Position numbers and translations under genes: made by a program. A DNA stretch of 64,000 nt from Candidatus Marinacidobacterales bacterium (GTDB lineage Bacteria > Acidobacteriota > Vicinamibacteria > Marinacidobacterales > SMYC01): NCBI GenBank assembly GCA_965237955.1, contig OZ250169.1, positions 1,088,001 to 1,152,000 of the forward strand, read 5' to 3'. Shown here one piece after another: positions 5,043-51,372 of this stretch. Under the pieces are notes generated by a model. That model did no database searches. It saw nothing but the letters and a program-made list of their open reading frames with translations, and was not told the origin of the DNA. Position 1 is the stretch's first letter. Each line of letters begins with the position of its first letter.

Positions 5043-6225
5043 TGTTGGCGGCCAGTCCCTAACCCCCCTGCGTGCTAGAGTATGAGCCAGAATTTCGAGG
5101 ACACTGTTCTCTCGTGGTCAGGGCCGATCCAAAGTGAAAAATCGCAGATGTCTCAATCGCGCCTGTCCGTTGCGGGGCAAAGTCAGTTCCGGAAACATCG
5201 TTCGCCACGGATTCTACCGAACCAGGTCCGGGAAACGTCGTCGATTCCGGTGTGTCGAGTGCGGAAAGACGTTCTCTTTGACCAAGGGCACGCCGTACTA
5301 CCGTCTCCAGCATCGAAGAGCTACTTTCGATGCCGTAGTCGCTCTAAGAGTCGAAGGTGTCAGCATTTCCGCGACTGCTCGGGTCGAGGGGATTGCCTGG
5401 AATACCGTGGCTCGCTGGCTCGAGCGGGCGGCGCACGCTTGTCGTCGATTCAACCGCGAGACGATCATCGGATTCGCCGTCGAGGAGCTCCAGGCCGATG
5501 AGGTCCGCACGTTCGTTGGTAGCAAGAAACGGCCGAGCTGGATCTTCGCTGCCATCGAGGTCGGGTCGCGGCCCTGGCCCTCGACGGTCGTCGGGCGACG
5601 AAGCTACCGAAACACTCTGGCGCTCGTTCGCGACGTCTCCAACCAAATGGATTTCATGAAACTTCCCCTGATCGTCACGGATGGGCTCGATTTCTACGAA
5701 AAGGTCGTCCGTCGCGTCTTCGGGCCGGCTTGTCTCTATGGCCAAGTCCTCAAGACGCGTAGGAACGATCGTGTCGTCAAGGTCGAACGACGGGCCATTC
5801 ATGGAGCTGCGTGGCGATTCGAAGAAGCGCTCAATAACTCCGAGGACTCTTCGACATTGAATACCTCCTTCATCGAGCGACTGAATCTGACCATCCGGCA
5901 AAGCTCGGCATACCTTTCGAGACGAACGCTTTCCCACGCTCGCTCGACGGAGAGGCTCGATGAGCACCTGGAGTTGCTCCGTTGCTATTACAATTTCGTC
6001 CGACCGCACGGAACTCTGAAGTTCGGACGTGAGATCCGAACTCCGGCTATGCAGGCCGGTCTGACCACGCGACGGCTCACCTTTCGAGACATCTTCTTGG
6101 CGACAACGATTCCTTTGTGGTCGCGGATCGAGGTTTTCTTGCTCACTGGGAGGCGCAACCTGGTCTCTTCCGCACCTGTACCACTGCCCGCAGCCGCGTA
6201 GCAACATTTGATGGAGGAAGCACCC
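5043..6225 (+). mobile_element. IS1-family element, outer part of left TIR missing
   Basis: Right TIR CAACATTTGATGGAGGAAGCACCC ends at 6225; left side begins TGTTGG. Confidence 0.75.
5134..6201 (+). CDS. IS1-family transposase, single ORF (Zn ribbon, HTH, DDE)
   Basis: CLNRAC..CVECGKTF, ELQADEV, VTDG, TSFIERLNLTIR, YYNFVRPH. Confidence 0.85.
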   Translation: MKNRRCLNRACPLRGKVSSGNIVRHGFYRTRSGKRRRFRCVECGKTFSLTKGTPYYRLQHRRATFDAVVALRVEGVSISATARVEGIAWNTVARWLERAAHACRRFNRETIIGFAVEELQADEVRTFVGSKKRPSWIFAAIEVGSRPWPSTVVGRRSYRNTLALVRDVSNQMDFMKLPLIVTDGLDFYEKVVRRVFGPACLYGQVLKTRRNDRVVKVERRAIHGAAWRFEEALNNSEDSSTLNTSFIERLNLTIRQSSAYLSRRTLSHARSTERLDEHLELLRCYYNFVRPHGTLKFGREIRTPAMQAGLTTRRLTFRDIFLATTIPLWSRIEVFLLTGRRNLVSSAPVPLPAAA

Positions 6226-43595: not shown

Positions 43596-45023
43596 CGTCC
43601 TGTGCCAAAACTCGGCTCTTTTGAAATAGGCCATCAATCAGCAACTTAGTGTCTGTGTTTGCGACCGGGCCAAGGGCCGTGGGCTTTACAATCGTCTTGG
43701 GCGGGCGGGTCGTCACCATGCAGATGACCACCTAGTCGAGAGCGAATATCGAAGCGTGTTCCTGAAGCGGTTTCCACGCTACGCCGGTCGAGCCCGCCGA
43801 GGGGCTACCGTCGCCGGCGACCATCTACGCGGCACGGCAGTAGTAGTTGAGAATGCCCACAAGTCGCTCTCGCGACACGATGGGGCCAGCGTCATTCGCG
43901 CTTGCCGGCAGAGGTGTGAGGAGCTCGTTGCCGAGACCTTGGTGGTTCCGTTCTGTGTGATAGTGCACTACGTATTCGGTTACCGCTGTGCGCAGGTGTC
44001 GCTCACTGAGAGGTACGAAGCGGTCGAGACACTCTCGACGTATGGAGAGAACGAATCTTTCCGCATATGCGTTCAGATTCGGACTATTAGCGGGAAGGCG
44101 AAGGGGCTTCACGCCTGAATCTCTCAACAGCCCACGTACCGCCTCGGTGAATAGCGGGTCCCGGTCGTGGATGAGGTATCGCTTGCCAAGGAGGAAACCA
44201 TCCCACATGTCAGTGAGGTTTCTTGCCACCTGCTTCATCCACTCCCCGTTGGGGTCCGACGTTATCCCACCGATGCACACGCAGCGAGTGGCGATATCGA
44301 TGACAAACAGGACATGGTAGCGGACGAGCCCGAACGGGTTCACCACCTCGACGGTGAACAGGTCTGTCGCAGCGATGGCACCCCAATGAGCCTTGATGAA
44401 GGTGCTCCACGACATGCTCCTGCCCCGCTCCGGCGCAGGAGCGATACCGTGCTCGGCGAGGATACTCTTGATAGTGTTGCGTCCGAGTTCATGTCCTAGG
44501 TTCTTGAGTGCGCCTCGCAGGCGCGTATATCCCCACGTCGGGTTCTCCCGCGCCACGCGCACAATGAGCTCACGGATGTCCTTCGCCGTCGGAGGTCGGC
44601 CTGGACTCCGGTTCTTGCTGCCATCGTACTTGGCTGCGATGAGGTGGCGGTACCAGCGCAGAAGCGTAGCGGGTGTGGCAACGGACGCAATCTGGGCCAG
44701 CGCCTCGCGGCCCAAAGCCTGGGCCTTGACCGCGAGCCTGCGCCGGTCGTCGTCCGAGAGACTGAGACGCTTGCCCCGAAGCCCGGCTCGGAGCACACGG
44801 TTCTCCTCTTGCAGGTAGTCGATCACATCCTGCTGCTGGCGGTTGACCCAGCCAGCTAGAACGAGCAGTAGGAATTGCACGTGGTACGTCATCATGGACC
44901 TGAAGATAACACCCTCGGGCCAGACGATTGTAAAGCCTACGGCCCTTGGTCCGGTCGCAAACACAGACACTGAGCTGCTGATTTATGGCCTATTTCAAAA
45001 GGGCCGAGTTTTGGCACAGGACG
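43596..45023 (-). mobile_element. Family-A element, copy 4 (intact)
   Basis: Both TIRs present; uninterrupted transposase. Confidence 0.9.
43825..44895 (-). CDS. Integrase-core DDE transposase, 356 aa
   Basis: Same length and motifs as 23221-24291. Confidence 0.9.
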
Positions 45024-45237: not shown

Positions 45238-45468
45238 CGTCGTGTCCAAAAATACAAACGAACTCAAGACCAGCTCGCCGGGACGTTTCGGAATAGACGT
45301 ATCTACGCTTGATTGGCCAATGGGAGCTAGAATCCTCGGCGTCGCGTCCTGTGCCAAAACTCGGCCTTTTGAAACAGACCATAATATCAGCAGCTTAGTG
45401 TCTGTGTTTGCGACCGGGTCAAGAGCCGTGCTTCGGCTACCCTGTGCCTTCTATTTATTCATCCGCAC
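45238..45468. mobile_element. Stack of solo ends: family B (45238), family A (45345), family C (45443)
   Basis: Each matches an end found elsewhere in the window; all face the same way. Confidence 0.85.
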
Positions 45469-45741
45469 GGGTGCTTCCGCCATTAAGTGTTGGTAGCTGC
45501 CGCTTAACCCGCTCACGTGCTAGAGTTTGAGCCTGACTTCGAGAGACGCAGTCCTTTCGGCGATGCCGGCTGGGCTGACCACGCGGTGCCTGATGTTCAG
45601 GGACATCGTTTATGGCGTTCGCCGGCAAAGGCAGGCCAACTGACACTAGCATTCAACCGCGGCGTAGCAACATATCTGGACTCCTCTAGTCAAGCCCCTT
45701 TCTTAATAAATCTTCCATCGAAGCTGCGCATCCATCGCGTC

Positions 45742-45952
45742 GTGACGAGTGGGTCAGACTGCAAACGTATCTTCGGCCTCAGTGAGGAGCGTCTTGGGTG
45801 CTCCGGGCCATGATGGAAAATCCGCGCGCGAGGAGCCAATCACTTTGAACGACCTCTTAGGGCCAGTGTTGCTATCGGCTTGACCCCGCGCCGGTCCGAC
45901 CGGTACGCCATCAGTTGGATGGGTATCGTCGCAGCCTCTTTTGGAAGGGAAA
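45742..45952 (-). ncRNA. Putative bridge/seekRNA, duplicate copy (approximate limits)
   Basis: Identical to 46080-46290. Confidence 0.65.
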
Positions 45953-46079
45953 AAGGAAAACACGAAAGTGGAGCCTCTAAGTCTAAGCGGCCATCGGCGA
46001 CTGGAATTCATATCTGGACTCCTCTAGTCAAGCCCCTTTCTTAATAAATCTTCCATCGAAGCTGCGCATCCATCGCGTC

Positions 46080-46290
46080 GTGACGAGTGGGTCAGACTGC
46101 AAACGTATCTTCGGCCTCAGTGAGGAGCGTCTTGGGTGCTCCGGGCCATGATGGAAAATCCGCGCGCGAGGAGCCAATCACTTTGAACGACCTCTTAGGG
46201 CCAGTGTTGCTATCGGCTTGACCCCGCGCCGGTCCGACCGGTACGCCATCAGTTGGATGGGTATCGTCGCAGCCTCTTTTGGAAGGGAAA
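46080..46290 (-). ncRNA. Putative bridge/seekRNA (approximate limits)
   Basis: Minus strand carries TAGCAACACT and AAGTG (match target), and TTCCATCA and AGATA (match element ends). Confidence 0.75.
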
Positions 46291-46320
46291 AAGGAAAACA
46301 CGAAAGTGGAGCCTCTAAGT

Positions 46321-47352
46321 CTAAGCGGCCATCGGCGACTGGAATTCACTCTCGCGGGTGGAGACGGCCCAGACGATCCGGGCGAGTTTGTTGGCGACAG
46401 CAATCACGGCCTTGTTGTGTCCCCGCGAGCGGTGGACCTTCCGAGCCCAGGCGCGGAGCTTGTCGGGCGGGCTCTTACTGACGTTCGCCGCGCGGAGCAC
46501 GGCGCGCCCGCCCTGGGTGAGGAGCATACGGAGGTAGGAGTCGCCACGCTTGGTGATGCGTCCGAGGCGGCGAATGTCGCCACTGGAGTTTTCCTTGGGA
46601 ACTAGGCCGAGGTAGCTCGAGAAGCGGCGCCCCGATGGGAAGCGGCGAAGATCGCCGACGAAGCCCACGATGGCGGTCGCGGTCAGAAGTCCGATGCCGG
46701 GAATGGCGAGAAGTCGTTGGACTTCAGGAAGCTGCTTGGTGAGCGCCTTGAGCTCGTGCTCGATGCCAGCGCACTTGTCCTTGAGTTCTCGAATCTCGGA
46801 GCAGGCATCACGGAGATGCGAACGGAGCACGTCGGGCAAATCAGAATCAGCGTCTTCGACGAGTTCGAAGAGGGCGGGCACGACGAAGTGAGCGCCCTTT
46901 GGGATGATGAATCCGAGTTCGCGCAGGATCCCGCGTACGGCATTGATGCGTGCGGTCCGTGTGGAGAGCCATCCTGAGCGCAGGCGATGGAGCGCGGCGA
47001 GGCTGTGCTGGTGCACGGACTTAATGGGCACGGGAAGAATCTCCTCGTTCCTGTAGGCCTCGAGCAACGCTTTGGCGTCGGCGCGGTCGTTCTTGCTCCC
47101 GCGTCGATAGGGCCTCACGAGGTGAGGTGGGAGCAGGACGACGTCGTGTCCCAACCTTCGGAACGTCCTTGCCCAGAAGTGAGCAGAGCCGCAGGCTTCG
47201 AGAAGCACGGTGGCAGCGCTCTGTTTGGCAAAAAACGACACCAACTTGGGTCGACTCACACGGAGTTGCTTGGACACCTTCCCCGCTTCTCCCGAGATGG
47301 CAATCTCGAAGACGTTCTTTGCAAGATCCACAGCGATCGTCGTATCTTTCAT
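46321..47352 (-). CDS. IS110/IS1111 DEDD recombinase
   Basis: IAVDLAKNVFE, LEACG, KNDRADA, IPGIG, YLGLVPKENSSG, ITKRGDSYLR, ANKLARI; RBS AGGAGG. Confidence 0.95.
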   Translation of the reverse strand: MKDTTIAVDLAKNVFEIAISGEAGKVSKQLRVSRPKLVSFFAKQSAATVLLEACGSAHFWARTFRRLGHDVVLLPPHLVRPYRRGSKNDRADAKALLEAYRNEEILPVPIKSVHQHSLAALHRLRSGWLSTRTARINAVRGILRELGFIIPKGAHFVVPALFELVEDADSDLPDVLRSHLRDACSEIRELKDKCAGIEHELKALTKQLPEVQRLLAIPGIGLLTATAIVGFVGDLRRFPSGRRFSSYLGLVPKENSSGDIRRLGRITKRGDSYLRMLLTQGGRAVLRAANVSKSPPDKLRAWARKVHRSRGHNKAVIAVANKLARIVWAVSTRESEFQSPMAA

Positions 47353-47530
47353 TCGGACTCCTCCTTTTCGATGCGTATTCGACTGACTTTGGCACATCGA
47401 TGCCGTCTATGTCAGCGGAGGAGTCCATTCCATCACTTGATTGTGAAAGCACCCGTTCTCGCATATGCTGGTACTTCCCTGCAATTCCGTAGAGTCGGTG
47501 AGAATGCAGGGACACGCTCCCGACACGGAG

Positions 47531-48478
47531 ATGACCACTGTGTGCACCATGAGATCGCTTCTCGGAGCTTCCGCGCTGGCTGTGGTCGGCACCGGACTGA
47601 TCGCCGGCAAGGCCTCGGCGCAGTCGGCGTCCGGCTTCTATCTGAACCAGGAGGTCGGGCTCAACGTCGCGTCGGCGGTTGAGTTGCTCGGCAACAGCAA
47701 CGACCGGGCCAGCCGCTGCGACGAGTTCATCAACCCCCGCTTCGCGGAGGTCCCCGGTTGTACCGACCCGAACCGCGGGTCGGGCGCGGGTTGGAAGACC
47801 ACGTACGACCGCGCCGCCGGGATGCTAGCTGGGCTGTCGGGCGGCTACCGGTTCGGCGGGCGGCTGCGAGTCGAGGTGGAGTGGTTCCATCGGGAGTCGG
47901 AGTACGACCAGACCTCGTCGGTGACGAGCGCGACCGGCGACACCTTCGCGAAGCTGGGCGGCGAGATCCAGCGGGCCGAGGACCGGATCGGCAGCATCTC
48001 GTCGCAGAACATCTTCGCCAACGTGTACGTCGACTTCCCCGGCCGGACTCGTCTGATGCCGTACGTCGGGGTGGGGGTTGGCATCGGCCTGACCGAGCTG
48101 GACTACGGCGACTTATGGGCGCGGAACCCCAACCCTGCCGCGATCGCCACGGCCGCGGGCCTCCCGAACGAGACGGAGATACGCCGGAACCTCGCGGCGA
48201 CCACGACGAGCAAGCAGGCAGAGTTGCACGACCGACTGACCGGGTACCAGGTGCTGGGCGGCGCAGACTATAGGATGTCGGAGATGTTATCGCTCGGCGT
48301 CAAGGTCCGCTGGGTGCGCTTCGGCCGCTTCACCGCCGAAGACATCGAATGGGAGCGCCTCCGGAGCCACGCGTCGCAACTGCGTCTTGACGGCAGCGAA
48401 CCGGTGACATTCCGCATCCGGACTGACGGCGCCCTCTCGTTCGTGGGCGTCACCTTGGCCATGCGGTACACGTTCTAA
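47531..48478 (+). CDS. Outer-membrane beta-barrel protein (opacity/Msp4-like)
   Basis: Signal peptide, LRVEVEW, ANVYVDF, PYVGVGVG, GYQVLGGADY, terminal RYTF. Confidence 0.85.
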   Translation: MTTVCTMRSLLGASALAVVGTGLIAGKASAQSASGFYLNQEVGLNVASAVELLGNSNDRASRCDEFINPRFAEVPGCTDPNRGSGAGWKTTYDRAAGMLAGLSGGYRFGGRLRVEVEWFHRESEYDQTSSVTSATGDTFAKLGGEIQRAEDRIGSISSQNIFANVYVDFPGRTRLMPYVGVGVGIGLTELDYGDLWARNPNPAAIATAAGLPNETEIRRNLAATTTSKQAELHDRLTGYQVLGGADYRMSEMLSLGVKVRWVRFGRFTAEDIEWERLRSHASQLRLDGSEPVTFRIRTDGALSFVGVTLAMRYTF

Positions 48479-48903: not shown

Positions 48904-49880
48904 TCATGCGGGCACCTTGTTCGCACGGCGCTCACGCCGCAGCTTCCGAGCCTGCTCGAGTTTGCGGTCTCGCTCCGACCAGATCTGGGTGGCCTTGCCA
49001 TCCATGAAGTCCAGCGGCGCAATGTAGCCGATCGCGCTGTGCAGGCGAACCCCGTTGTAATATTCGACGAATCGTTCCATCAAGCGGCGAGCCTCTTCGA
49101 GGCTCGTGGGGCTGGCAGGACGCAGGGCGTCCGATTTTATCGTCTTGTGCCAACGCTCGATCTTCCCGTTCGATTGCGGGTAGTACGGCGCGGTCCTCAC
49201 GTGCGTCATCCCTGAGATGCGGATGAATGCCTTGAAGTCCTTCGCGATGTACTGCGGACCGTTGTCCGAGATGATTCGAGGCCGCGCATCGGGGTACCGC
49301 TCCTTTGCTCGCTCCAAGATGCACTCCACATCCGCTTCCGTCATCGACTCACGAATCTCCCAGTGAACCACCGCGCGGCTCGCACCATCCAGAAACGAGC
49401 AGAGGTAGTAGAACGTCCCACCCAGGTTCAAGTACGAGATATCCGTGTGCCAGTGCTGGTGCGCTCGCAGCGGCTGAACGAAGCCCGTTCCCTTCTTCGA
49501 CGGCTTCGGGTTCCAACGGTCCAGACGACCCGCCTTCGACAACACCCGGTACGTCGTCGAGGGGCTAACTGCCACCACGTCTTCGTCCAGCATCATGAAC
49601 GTGAGTCGGCGATACCCGTCCAGTGGGTGGCAGTCGAAGTAGTCGATCACGGACTGGCGCTCCCATTCTTCGATCCAGTGATCCCGCGGCACCAGGCCGT
49701 TGTGCTCATTCACCTTCCCGTACCGCTTGCGCCAGTCGTAGAACTTGCCCCGAGCGATCCCGCACCACTGAACGATCTGCTGGACCGGAAGCTGGGTCTT
49801 GGTGGCGATTGTGTTCACGAAGTCGACAACCTCGTCACGACGGTCATGGGGAATCCAGGCACCACTCAGGCTTCCCCAAG
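48904..49880 (-). CDS. IS3 OrfB (DDE), probably reached by frameshift at an A8 run (49881-49888)
   Basis: GYRRL, WHTDISY, ISDNGPQY, PQSNGKIERWH, YNGVRLHSAIGY. Confidence 0.9.
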
Positions 49881-50176
49881 TTTTTTTTGAGTGTCACGTA
49901 CTCTTCGGTCACCTCAGCGATGATCTGATCCTTACGGGCCACCTTCGCCTCGAGACGGGAGAGCTTCTCCTCTAGCTCCTTCTCACGGCTCGGCGCACGA
50001 CGGAACGAAAACACCGTATGGGCTCCAGCCAATAGCTCCCTTTGCCATGTGTAGAACAGGCTCGGCTGGATTTCTGCCTCGTTGCATACCTCCGAGACCG
50101 GCTTTTTCTCGGCAACGTGCTGGCGCAACAGCTCTGCCTTTTGCTCCGCAGTGTGACGACGACGACCTTTGCTCAT
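49844..50176 (-). CDS. IS3 OrfA (HTH)
   Basis: RRRHTAEQKAELLR..VSEVC..FYTWQR..LKKN. Confidence 0.9.
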   Translation of the reverse strand: MSKGRRRHTAEQKAELLRQHVAEKKPVSEVCNEAEIQPSLFYTWQRELLAGAHTVFSFRRAPSREKELEEKLSRLEAKVARKDQIIAEVTEEYVTLKKNLGKPEWCLDSP

Positions 50177-51372
50177 GACAGCTCCTTTTTCCATGTGCGT
50201 ATTTTAACTTCAGGACTGTCATGTTCCAGCTGAACCGAAACACTCGCGGTCAAGGCCCAGGCTTTGGGCCGCGAGGCGCTGGCCCAGATTGCGTCCGTTG
50301 CCACACCCGCTACGCTTCTGCGCTGGTACCGCCACCTCATCGCAGCCAAGTACGATGGCAGCAAGAACCGGAGTCCAGGCCGACCTCCGACGGCGAAGGA
50401 CATCCGTGAGCTCATTGTGCGCGTGGCGCAGGAGAACTCGACGTGGGAATATACGCGCCTGCGAGGCGCACTCAAGAACCTAGGACATGAACTCGGACGC
50501 AACACTATCAAGAGGATCCTCGCCGAGCACGGTATCGCGCCTGCCCCGGAGCGGGGCAAGAGCATGTCGTGGAGCACCTTCATCAAGGCTCATTGGGGCG
50601 CCATCGCTGCGACAGACCTGTTCACCGTCGAGGTGGTGAACCCGTTCGGGCTCGTCCGCTACCATGTCCTGTTTGTCATCGATATCGCCACTCGCTGCGT
50701 GTGCATCGGTGGGATAACGTCGGACCCCAACGGGGAGTGGATGAAGCAGGTGGCAAGAAACTTCACTGACATGTGGGATGGTTTCCTCCTTGGCAAGCGA
50801 TACCTCATCCACGACCGGGACACCCGCTATTCACCGAGGCAGTACGTGGGCTGTTGAGAGATTCAGGCGTGAAGCCCCTTCGCCTTCCCGCTAATAGTCC
50901 GAATCTGAACGCATATGCGGAAAGATTCGTTCTCTCCATACGTCGAGAGTGTCTCGACTGCGTATTCCAGCCATCGTGAACGCCGAATCCAGAGCAAGCT
51001 GAACAGCGAATCCGGTGAAGCCGAACGCTCATCGAAGCGATGAAGTGTTGGGTGACCTCCTTTCCACTGATTGAAAACGTGAACCTATCTTACCTGCGTG
51101 TTGTGTAGCAAGGGGCGGCAGGTCGGTGCCGGAGGGAGCGGGCGTAAGGAAAGACGCGAAGCGACCTTCCCGCTCCCGTAGGCAGCGACCTGCCGCGGCC
51201 GAACCCCGGGCGATGTGGGGCTGGTTTCGGGGGGTTGCTGGGGTATGGCCTGGCTCGAGAAGACGCTTCCTGAGGCATTCTCGCGCGTCGTTTTGGCGCC
51301 GCATCGTCTGGTACCCCGGGTTTGGCGGTTTCACCCGTTTTTATCGCATCGACGCTGTGGTCCCTCGCTCGC

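Follow-up and report, generated by a model that had tools for sequence, protein, structure and literature searches.

An ISPa25-like IS1111 element with a predicted guide RNA matching the terminal inverted repeat of an IS1-like host

What places one mobile element at a fixed base inside the terminal inverted repeat (TIR) of another? The question is raised by an insertion in the 64,000-nt stretch of DNA analysed here (the window, numbered from its first base), part of an 8.13 Mb genome in one contig (G000). The inserted element is of the IS1111 type and reads on the minus strand, with the following parts.

45673..47435, minus: ISPa25-like element of the IS1111 type, a 1425-nt unit with its 3'-terminal 338 nt duplicated in tandem
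47418..47435, minus: left end, comprising a terminal extension and the sub-terminal inverted repeat (47427-47418)
46321..47352, minus: DEDD transposase, 343 aa, from an ATG behind AGGAGG (reading frame open from 47397)
46011..46031, minus: inner right end, with a TTGACT -35-like box, sub-terminal inverted repeat and ATA
45673..46010, minus: outer duplicate, 338 nt, identical, with the last codons, a second RNA scaffold (45938-45757) and the outer right end

The ends were fixed from 25 left and 25 right junctions, and family membership was judged on the IS1111 criteria of PMC11187229. The transposase scores 308.7 bits against the IS110-family model NF033542 (cut-off 140), with D9, E52, D89, D92 and S257-G258 all intact, and it has the features of IS1111 transposases (DEDD, the GL-P----SG motif and a length in the class of about 330–350 aa). 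Perfect 10-nt sub-terminal repeats with extensions of 7 nt on the left and 3 nt on the right, and a long non-coding region of about 310 nt 3' of the transposase gene, are likewise as in IS1111. The element uses one site in one orientation without target duplication, its rejoined flanks equal the empty sites of relatives, and the top-strand guide described below lies 5' of the bottom-strand guide, the IS1111 order. A 2-nt core duplicated at the two junctions, as the earlier note had read them, had to be given up: the left TG is part of the element and the right TG part of the target. Among 59 relatives, the first base of the left end is T in 57 but the first base of the right flank is C in 53, so no core is duplicated.

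The genome holds 16 near-identical full copies, together with one interrupted copy, several truncated ones and a 91%-identical sister; five genomes labelled Ca. Marinacidobacterales contain copies that are 93–98% identical in amino acids. Truncated copies starting just before the target loop were considered as a separate RNA-only mini-element and rejected, since they have no left end of their own and abut the end of another, very abundant element. That end (of the type at window 45345-45365; 495 ends in G000, usually preceded by CCC or CGC) meets truncated IS1111 copies at the same place in several genomes. Near the element lie genes for two transposases with an integrase core (43825-44970 and 48904-50194) and for a beta-barrel protein of the outer membrane (47465-48478).

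With the ends joined, the -35-like box lies 17–18 nt from a junction -10-like box in 44 of 85 relatives, and no other spacing was as good. Contigs of four runs, a form of data that drops rare forms, contained no circle junction. The left sub-terminal repeat (47417-47426) is complementary to the transposase ribosome-binding region (47355-47364), and a complement of at least 7 nt to that region was found in 74 of 85 relatives, a count made without a control. Such a complement could block translation of read-through transcripts, and not of transcripts from the junction promoter.

The sequence that surrounds the element belongs to a family of insertion sequences and miniature derivatives (MITEs), represented in the window by the following features.

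45470..45672, plus: host MITE body and left TIR, 221 nt once rejoined
47436..47453, minus: outer 18 nt of the host right TIR, with the left half of the target, TCAAG, at 47440-47436
45665..45672, minus: right half of the target, TGTTGCTA
5134..6224, plus: IS1-like host transposase (355 aa) and an empty right TIR, with A for G at target position -1

TIRs of the IS1 family are about 23 nt long and start with GGT, a pattern that the host TIRs fit. IS1 itself makes target-site duplications of 8–9 nt; the host elements and their 160–245-nt MITEs have none in 34 of 40 paired ends and 2–3 nt in the other 6, and we therefore call the host ‘IS1-like’. The IS1 family has a DDE transposase with an N-terminal zinc finger; the host protein scores 32.7 bits against PF03400 (cut-off 24.1) and 85.1 against NF033558, below the cut-off of 100, and some of its homologs are named as IS1 family. 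The first 89 nt of the host MITE are 84% identical to a full-length IS1-like copy.

The flanks of the element rejoin to a version of the TIR like that at 6196-6225, as had been noticed earlier, and the target is a 13-nt sequence in the right TIR, TCAAG followed directly by TGTTGCTA. In full-length hosts the right half includes the stop codon of the host transposase, on the other strand. Other copies, which the earlier note had proposed to collect, occupy the same position: of the 25 intact left ends in the genome, 24 are preceded by the outermost 18 nt of a single TIR family, and the one exception has different guides that fit its own site. Left junctions in related genomes lie inside the TIR in 55 of 61 cases, and the site is perfect at 30 of 41 complete copies. 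The genome has 203 TIR-like ends, 25 filled and 178 empty. All 25 filled TIRs have TCAAG and all 18 TIR-side right ends have TGTTGCTA; none of the 178 empty ends has the perfect 13-mer (15 have one mismatch), which leaves a graded set of 178 unused sites with 1–6 mismatches. One perfect empty 13-mer was found beside a MITE end. Where both host ends could be paired, the opposite end was of the unhit type in 13 of 13. Six insertions lie outside TIRs, all from the genome of L029, and two that carry the same guide (L033 and L034) have 12 of the 13 target nucleotides.

Many filled TIRs could also arise if one or a few insertions had been spread by the host with the IS1111 element as cargo. In filled TIRs (window 47430-47453, for example), the left end of the element leaves the host TIR intact at 23 of 24 positions, so that the host might still move with its cargo; filled ends differ from common left TIRs mainly at position 21, and four copies have an outer flank in common. 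No such movement was seen in the copies compared, however, and composite transposition of host and element together was rejected because no composites are identical. The IS1111 copies are identical or nearly so, but between their host MITEs there are 5 or more differences (median 26) in each of 36 pairs from this genome, and 6 or more in each of 45 pairs from a relative, which argues that most insertions were independent. The 25 copies have 23 distinct outer flanks, and the duplicated form of the element sits in two different hosts. We regard spread by the host as highly improbable, and as the main route it is already largely refuted.

In the non-coding region downstream of the transposase gene, a bridge/seekRNA and its guides are predicted as follows.

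46095..46276, minus: inner copy of the predicted bridge/seekRNA scaffold, from a consensus structure of 41 sequences
46203..46212, minus: target guide for the top strand, its predicted partner being TGTTGCTA with 1–2 nt to the left
46179..46186, minus: bottom-strand target guide, TC[A]AAGTG
46149..46156, minus: donor guide for the left end of the element, to which it is complementary
46104..46110, minus: near-invariant donor guide that matches the right end, AGATA followed by CG

Four segments had been picked out from the letters of the minus strand, and all were found in place: TAGCAACACT (46212-46203), AAGTG (46183-46179), TTCCATCA (46156-46149, read also on the plus strand at 47428-47435) and AGATA (46110-46106). 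When the non-coding region was simulated 20,000 times under a dinucleotide model, the 10-mer arose by chance in 0.03% of runs, the 8-mer in 0.5% and the two 5-mers in 14% and 19%; all four together never occurred (0 of 20,000). Only the 10-mer and the 8-mer are thus individually unlikely, and the 5-mers by themselves are not significant. The 10/10 match across the target core holds as a 10-mer, but its final T belongs to the scaffold and hardly varies, which makes the real guide 8–9 nt long. AAGTG was likewise placed correctly as the guide for the opposite strand, a guide that likely extends to TC[A]AAGT with one bulged base, since RNA positions 102–107 covary with target positions -5 to -1.

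The 41-sequence consensus fold has compensatory changes at 18 of 41 pairs, and 95.6% of pairing cells in the scaffold alignment can pair, compared with 33–48% when the structure is slid along it, a score taken on the same alignment from which the structure was derived. The earlier note had proposed to test whether the four segments lie in two internal loops: both target guides do flank one internal loop, unpaired in the consensus, but the donor guides occupy separate loops of a branched structure. In the single-sequence fold, where the mean unpaired probability is 0.40, the four guides have values of 0.63, 0.75, 0.41 and 0.58, one donor guide (0.41) being largely paired. Donor guides in branched structures are noted for many IS1111 elements in PMC11208160. 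A search of Rfam across 45400-47500 returned no match up to E 0.1.

We then compared guides with insertion sites among relatives. From a starting set of 120 distinct elements with both ends, those with at least 44% identity and both anchor motifs were kept, giving 61 rows (20 were skipped and four rows of the TIR lineage removed), and removal of two further TIR-lineage rows left 59. The top-strand guide matches its own flank at 7.15 of 9 positions (5.20 when permuted; maximum 5.71 in 5000 permutations) and the bottom-strand guide at 3.24 of 4 (1.64 when permuted; maximum 2.15 in 5000), scores that are inflated by relatedness as the rows are not independent. Several non-guide columns also exceeded the permutation maximum, with scores below those of the top guide columns. 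In the nine rows with non-attC sites, both target guides again exceeded all permutations. The left-end donor guide shows little covariation because it is conserved together with the left end. Further relatives with non-attC guides that fit their own sites are L161, L173, L159, L163, L164, L077, L079, L145 and L165; L161 and L173 have a common site, L159 adjoins a reverse transcriptase gene and L164 lies near a Mutator transposase. In a search for other relatives retargeted to IS ends, covering 26 flanking reading frames at 9 loci, no transposase was seen to abut the site in L161 or L173.

These comparisons bear on whether the site is picked by protein recognition of the host TIR, or of the host transposase bound there, with the RNA matches incidental. 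Nearly all insertions do lie in TIRs, as recognition by protein would have it. Insertions at sites outside TIRs nevertheless have the 12-mer in common, the left TIR is never the filled end in the 13 pairs although it is identical over the outer 18–22 nt, a 93%-identical transposase goes to attC, and guides covary with targets. We consider choice of site by protein very improbable. That the guides are aimed at an IS1/MITE family, as first proposed, is supported by the copies in the same site, the guide/target covariation, the unpaired target guides and an IS1-like host with MITEs.

The comparisons establish the element's anatomy, its specificity for site and orientation, the guide/target covariation and the covariation in RNA structure. 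On these grounds, we hold with considerable confidence the reading that an ISPa25-like IS1111 element likely uses a predicted bridge/seekRNA to steer its DEDD transposase to the 13-nt site, and that it was likely retargeted from an attC ancestor. Following work on ISEc11 and IS621, PMC11187229 in particular, the ends would join into a circle, creating a promoter; the bridge/seekRNA would be made from the downstream non-coding region; this predicted RNA would base-pair with the 13-nt site, likely steering the transposase; and the circle would be inserted without target duplication. Two points are unaccounted for by this mechanism. The top-strand guide pairs also with target positions -1/-2, pairing that inhibits insertion in IS621 according to PMC13626964, and the right-end donor guide has CG where both junctions have TG.

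The element also carries a rearrangement that was absent from the earlier note. Two copies of the entire guide region and right end, with no mismatch between them, lie 338 nt apart. The inner right end (46011..46031) abuts a site inside the 3' end of the transposase gene, the join falling exactly on the last base of the right end. A perfect repeat in a repeat-rich assembly could be an assembly artefact or ordinary slippage, yet this is very unlikely given that exact join, the identical form at two loci with different flanks and a further join of this kind in a single contig, of low depth, from an RNA run. The second locus (G000 7863073-7864837) is in a different, full-length host copy, so the duplicated form has likely moved as a unit. 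Against an artefact, too, are the right-end-to-internal joins found in three genomes (this one and fetched loci): 15 in all, 11 of them distinct, and each of the 11 has G at +2, compared with 27.5% of positions. Similarity of the joins to donor or target on the right side beyond +2 is weak (p 0.01–0.05), and they are not enriched as left-side target mimics (p 0.26–0.29). We infer that the 338-nt duplication is a transposase misfire joining the right end to an internal site. The right end would become linked to an internal site cut by mistake, and recombination or copying would then return the product as a tandem repeat; for an IS110 element, bioRxiv 10.1101/2025.10.25.684509 reports reactions of the top strand only. 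Upstream of one IS1111 copy, an array at G000 2861900-2862420 has tandem 48- and 61-nt units that each end in the left target half, and 16-nt versions occur at G000 2974176, 3011962 and 7874127.

Perfect sites are distributed unevenly among genomes. Counted with strict patterns in 41 genomes, perfect empty and filled TIRs number 0/18 in G000, 0/3 in G012, 11/4 in G008, 38/1 in G013, 19/10 in G015, 48/3 in G018 and 64/33 in G033, and G021, G023 and G025 have 18, 12 and 4 empty with none filled. Eight relatives thus retain perfect empty TIRs (4–64 each) and this genome has none, which indicates that the perfect site is normal host sequence. In G000, 6 of 24 own-type right ends are internal joins; the figure is 10 of 21 in G041 (no empty 13-mers) and 1 of 51 in four genomes with 15–80 empty sites. 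The two exhausted genomes account for 16 of the 17 joins counted; assignment was by eye, and some right ends may belong to other relatives. G043 speaks against simple exhaustion, with 22 empty sites and yet exact right flanks in only 2 of 8. With two genomes set against four, the link between exhaustion and internal joins is a lead, not a result. A tentative history, which we hold to be possible but not the favoured expectation, is that a parasite of attC was rewritten to the IS1-like right end, filled all perfect sites in some genomes and, with none left, misfired on itself, linking its ends to internal and neighbouring sites and amplifying its guide-RNA gene in tandem, with the surviving ends being escapers by guide mismatch. 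If true, bridge recombinases could be driven to off-target rearrangement in nature by running out of targets, which would also supply spare guide copies free for retargeting.

Evidence on the origin of the targeting comes from the sister copy, which lies on the same chromosome, has 93% amino-acid identity and occupies an attC-like hairpin behind a stop codon; of the two, only the sister is in attC, the element itself being in the TIR. The sister keeps the scaffold and donor guides and has changed 4 of 9 and 3 of 5 target-guide bases, and its guides fit its own site except at one base. The genome has an integron integrase match above the cut-off (G000 3346207-3347146), in two pieces in different frames and possibly frameshifted. 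An attC-like motif, a loosely defined label, is present in 65 of 86 relatives with context, and 27 of the 45 such relatives that could be tested fold with the expected box pairing, compared with 14 of 89 shuffled controls. In a quick-search tree that ignores L104 and L119 (probably mis-translated, with long branches and odd composition) and includes 14 intermediate proteins without DNA context, the TIR rows and the sister fall inside a mostly attC-labelled set. As the sister, most relatives and ISPa25 sit in attC-like sites, an ancestor that targeted attC and then changed its guides is the likely origin of the element. Targeting of the TIR could instead be older in this subgroup, still RNA-guided, with the attC sister a reversion or a chimera bearing an attC guide loop. 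The sister and two TIR subgroups do form an unresolved fork, and a search of other near relatives in named genomes for the attC-type loop gave just two matches, both in one other acidobacterial genome. The prevalence of the attC-like motif among relatives and its presence in ISPa25 oppose an older TIR targeting, as does a T peculiar to the TIR lineage at a position in the guide where 58 of 59 relatives have C; we judge this ordering of events unlikely, though it deserves some weight.

Among IS1111 elements, IS4321 and IS5075 reportedly target Tn21-family TIRs. They too lie in another element's TIR and differ from the present element in host family and target; neither name appears among the 25 plasmid matches listed, and the earlier note's comparison with them gives way to attC-targeting ISPa25 (PMC11187229), the best named among those matches at 46% amino-acid identity. 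The first 19 nt of the left end are identical in ISPa25, the right-end layout is the same and the RNA scaffold is common to both (nhmmer E 1e-23), but ISPa25 sits in the attC of a class 1 integron, whereas the guides here fit the IS1-like TIR. The mechanism is already known, as are IS1111 elements aimed at the ends of other elements. In titles and openings of abstracts, covering neither subscription journals nor ISfinder, we found no IS1111 element aimed at IS1-type TIRs and no switch from attC to TIR.

Conserved scaffolds with changed guides and changed targets are likewise described for ISEc11/ISXne4 and ISEc21/ISMch6, pairs that are 72% identical (PMC11187229); the element and its sister are 93% identical on one chromosome, and their switch, unlike those, is between two classes of mobile-element recombination site. 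The tandem RNA-bearing 3' modules resemble ssr9/MITEPpu9 of ISPpu9, which has transposase-dependent alternative circles (PMC12288879), but ssr9 has end-like boxes on both sides, whereas the duplicates here start at varied internal sites only weakly like the left end. For bridge-recombinase tools, the possible link from exhausted targets to self-rearrangement is relevant to their behaviour off target. With IS621, the element has in common a DEDD transposase with catalytic serine and four guides for target and donor; it differs from IS621 (PMC11208160 and PMC13626964) in its downstream RNA, reversed guide order, long sub-terminal repeats, donor guides in a branched structure and no need for a shared 2-nt core. 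The IS1111 branch is less well understood than IS621, and a natural pair of 93%-identical RNA-guided transposases on one chromosome, alike in their donor guides but not in those for the target, offers that branch, together with the 178 unused sites of 1–6 mismatches, a ready test of specificity.
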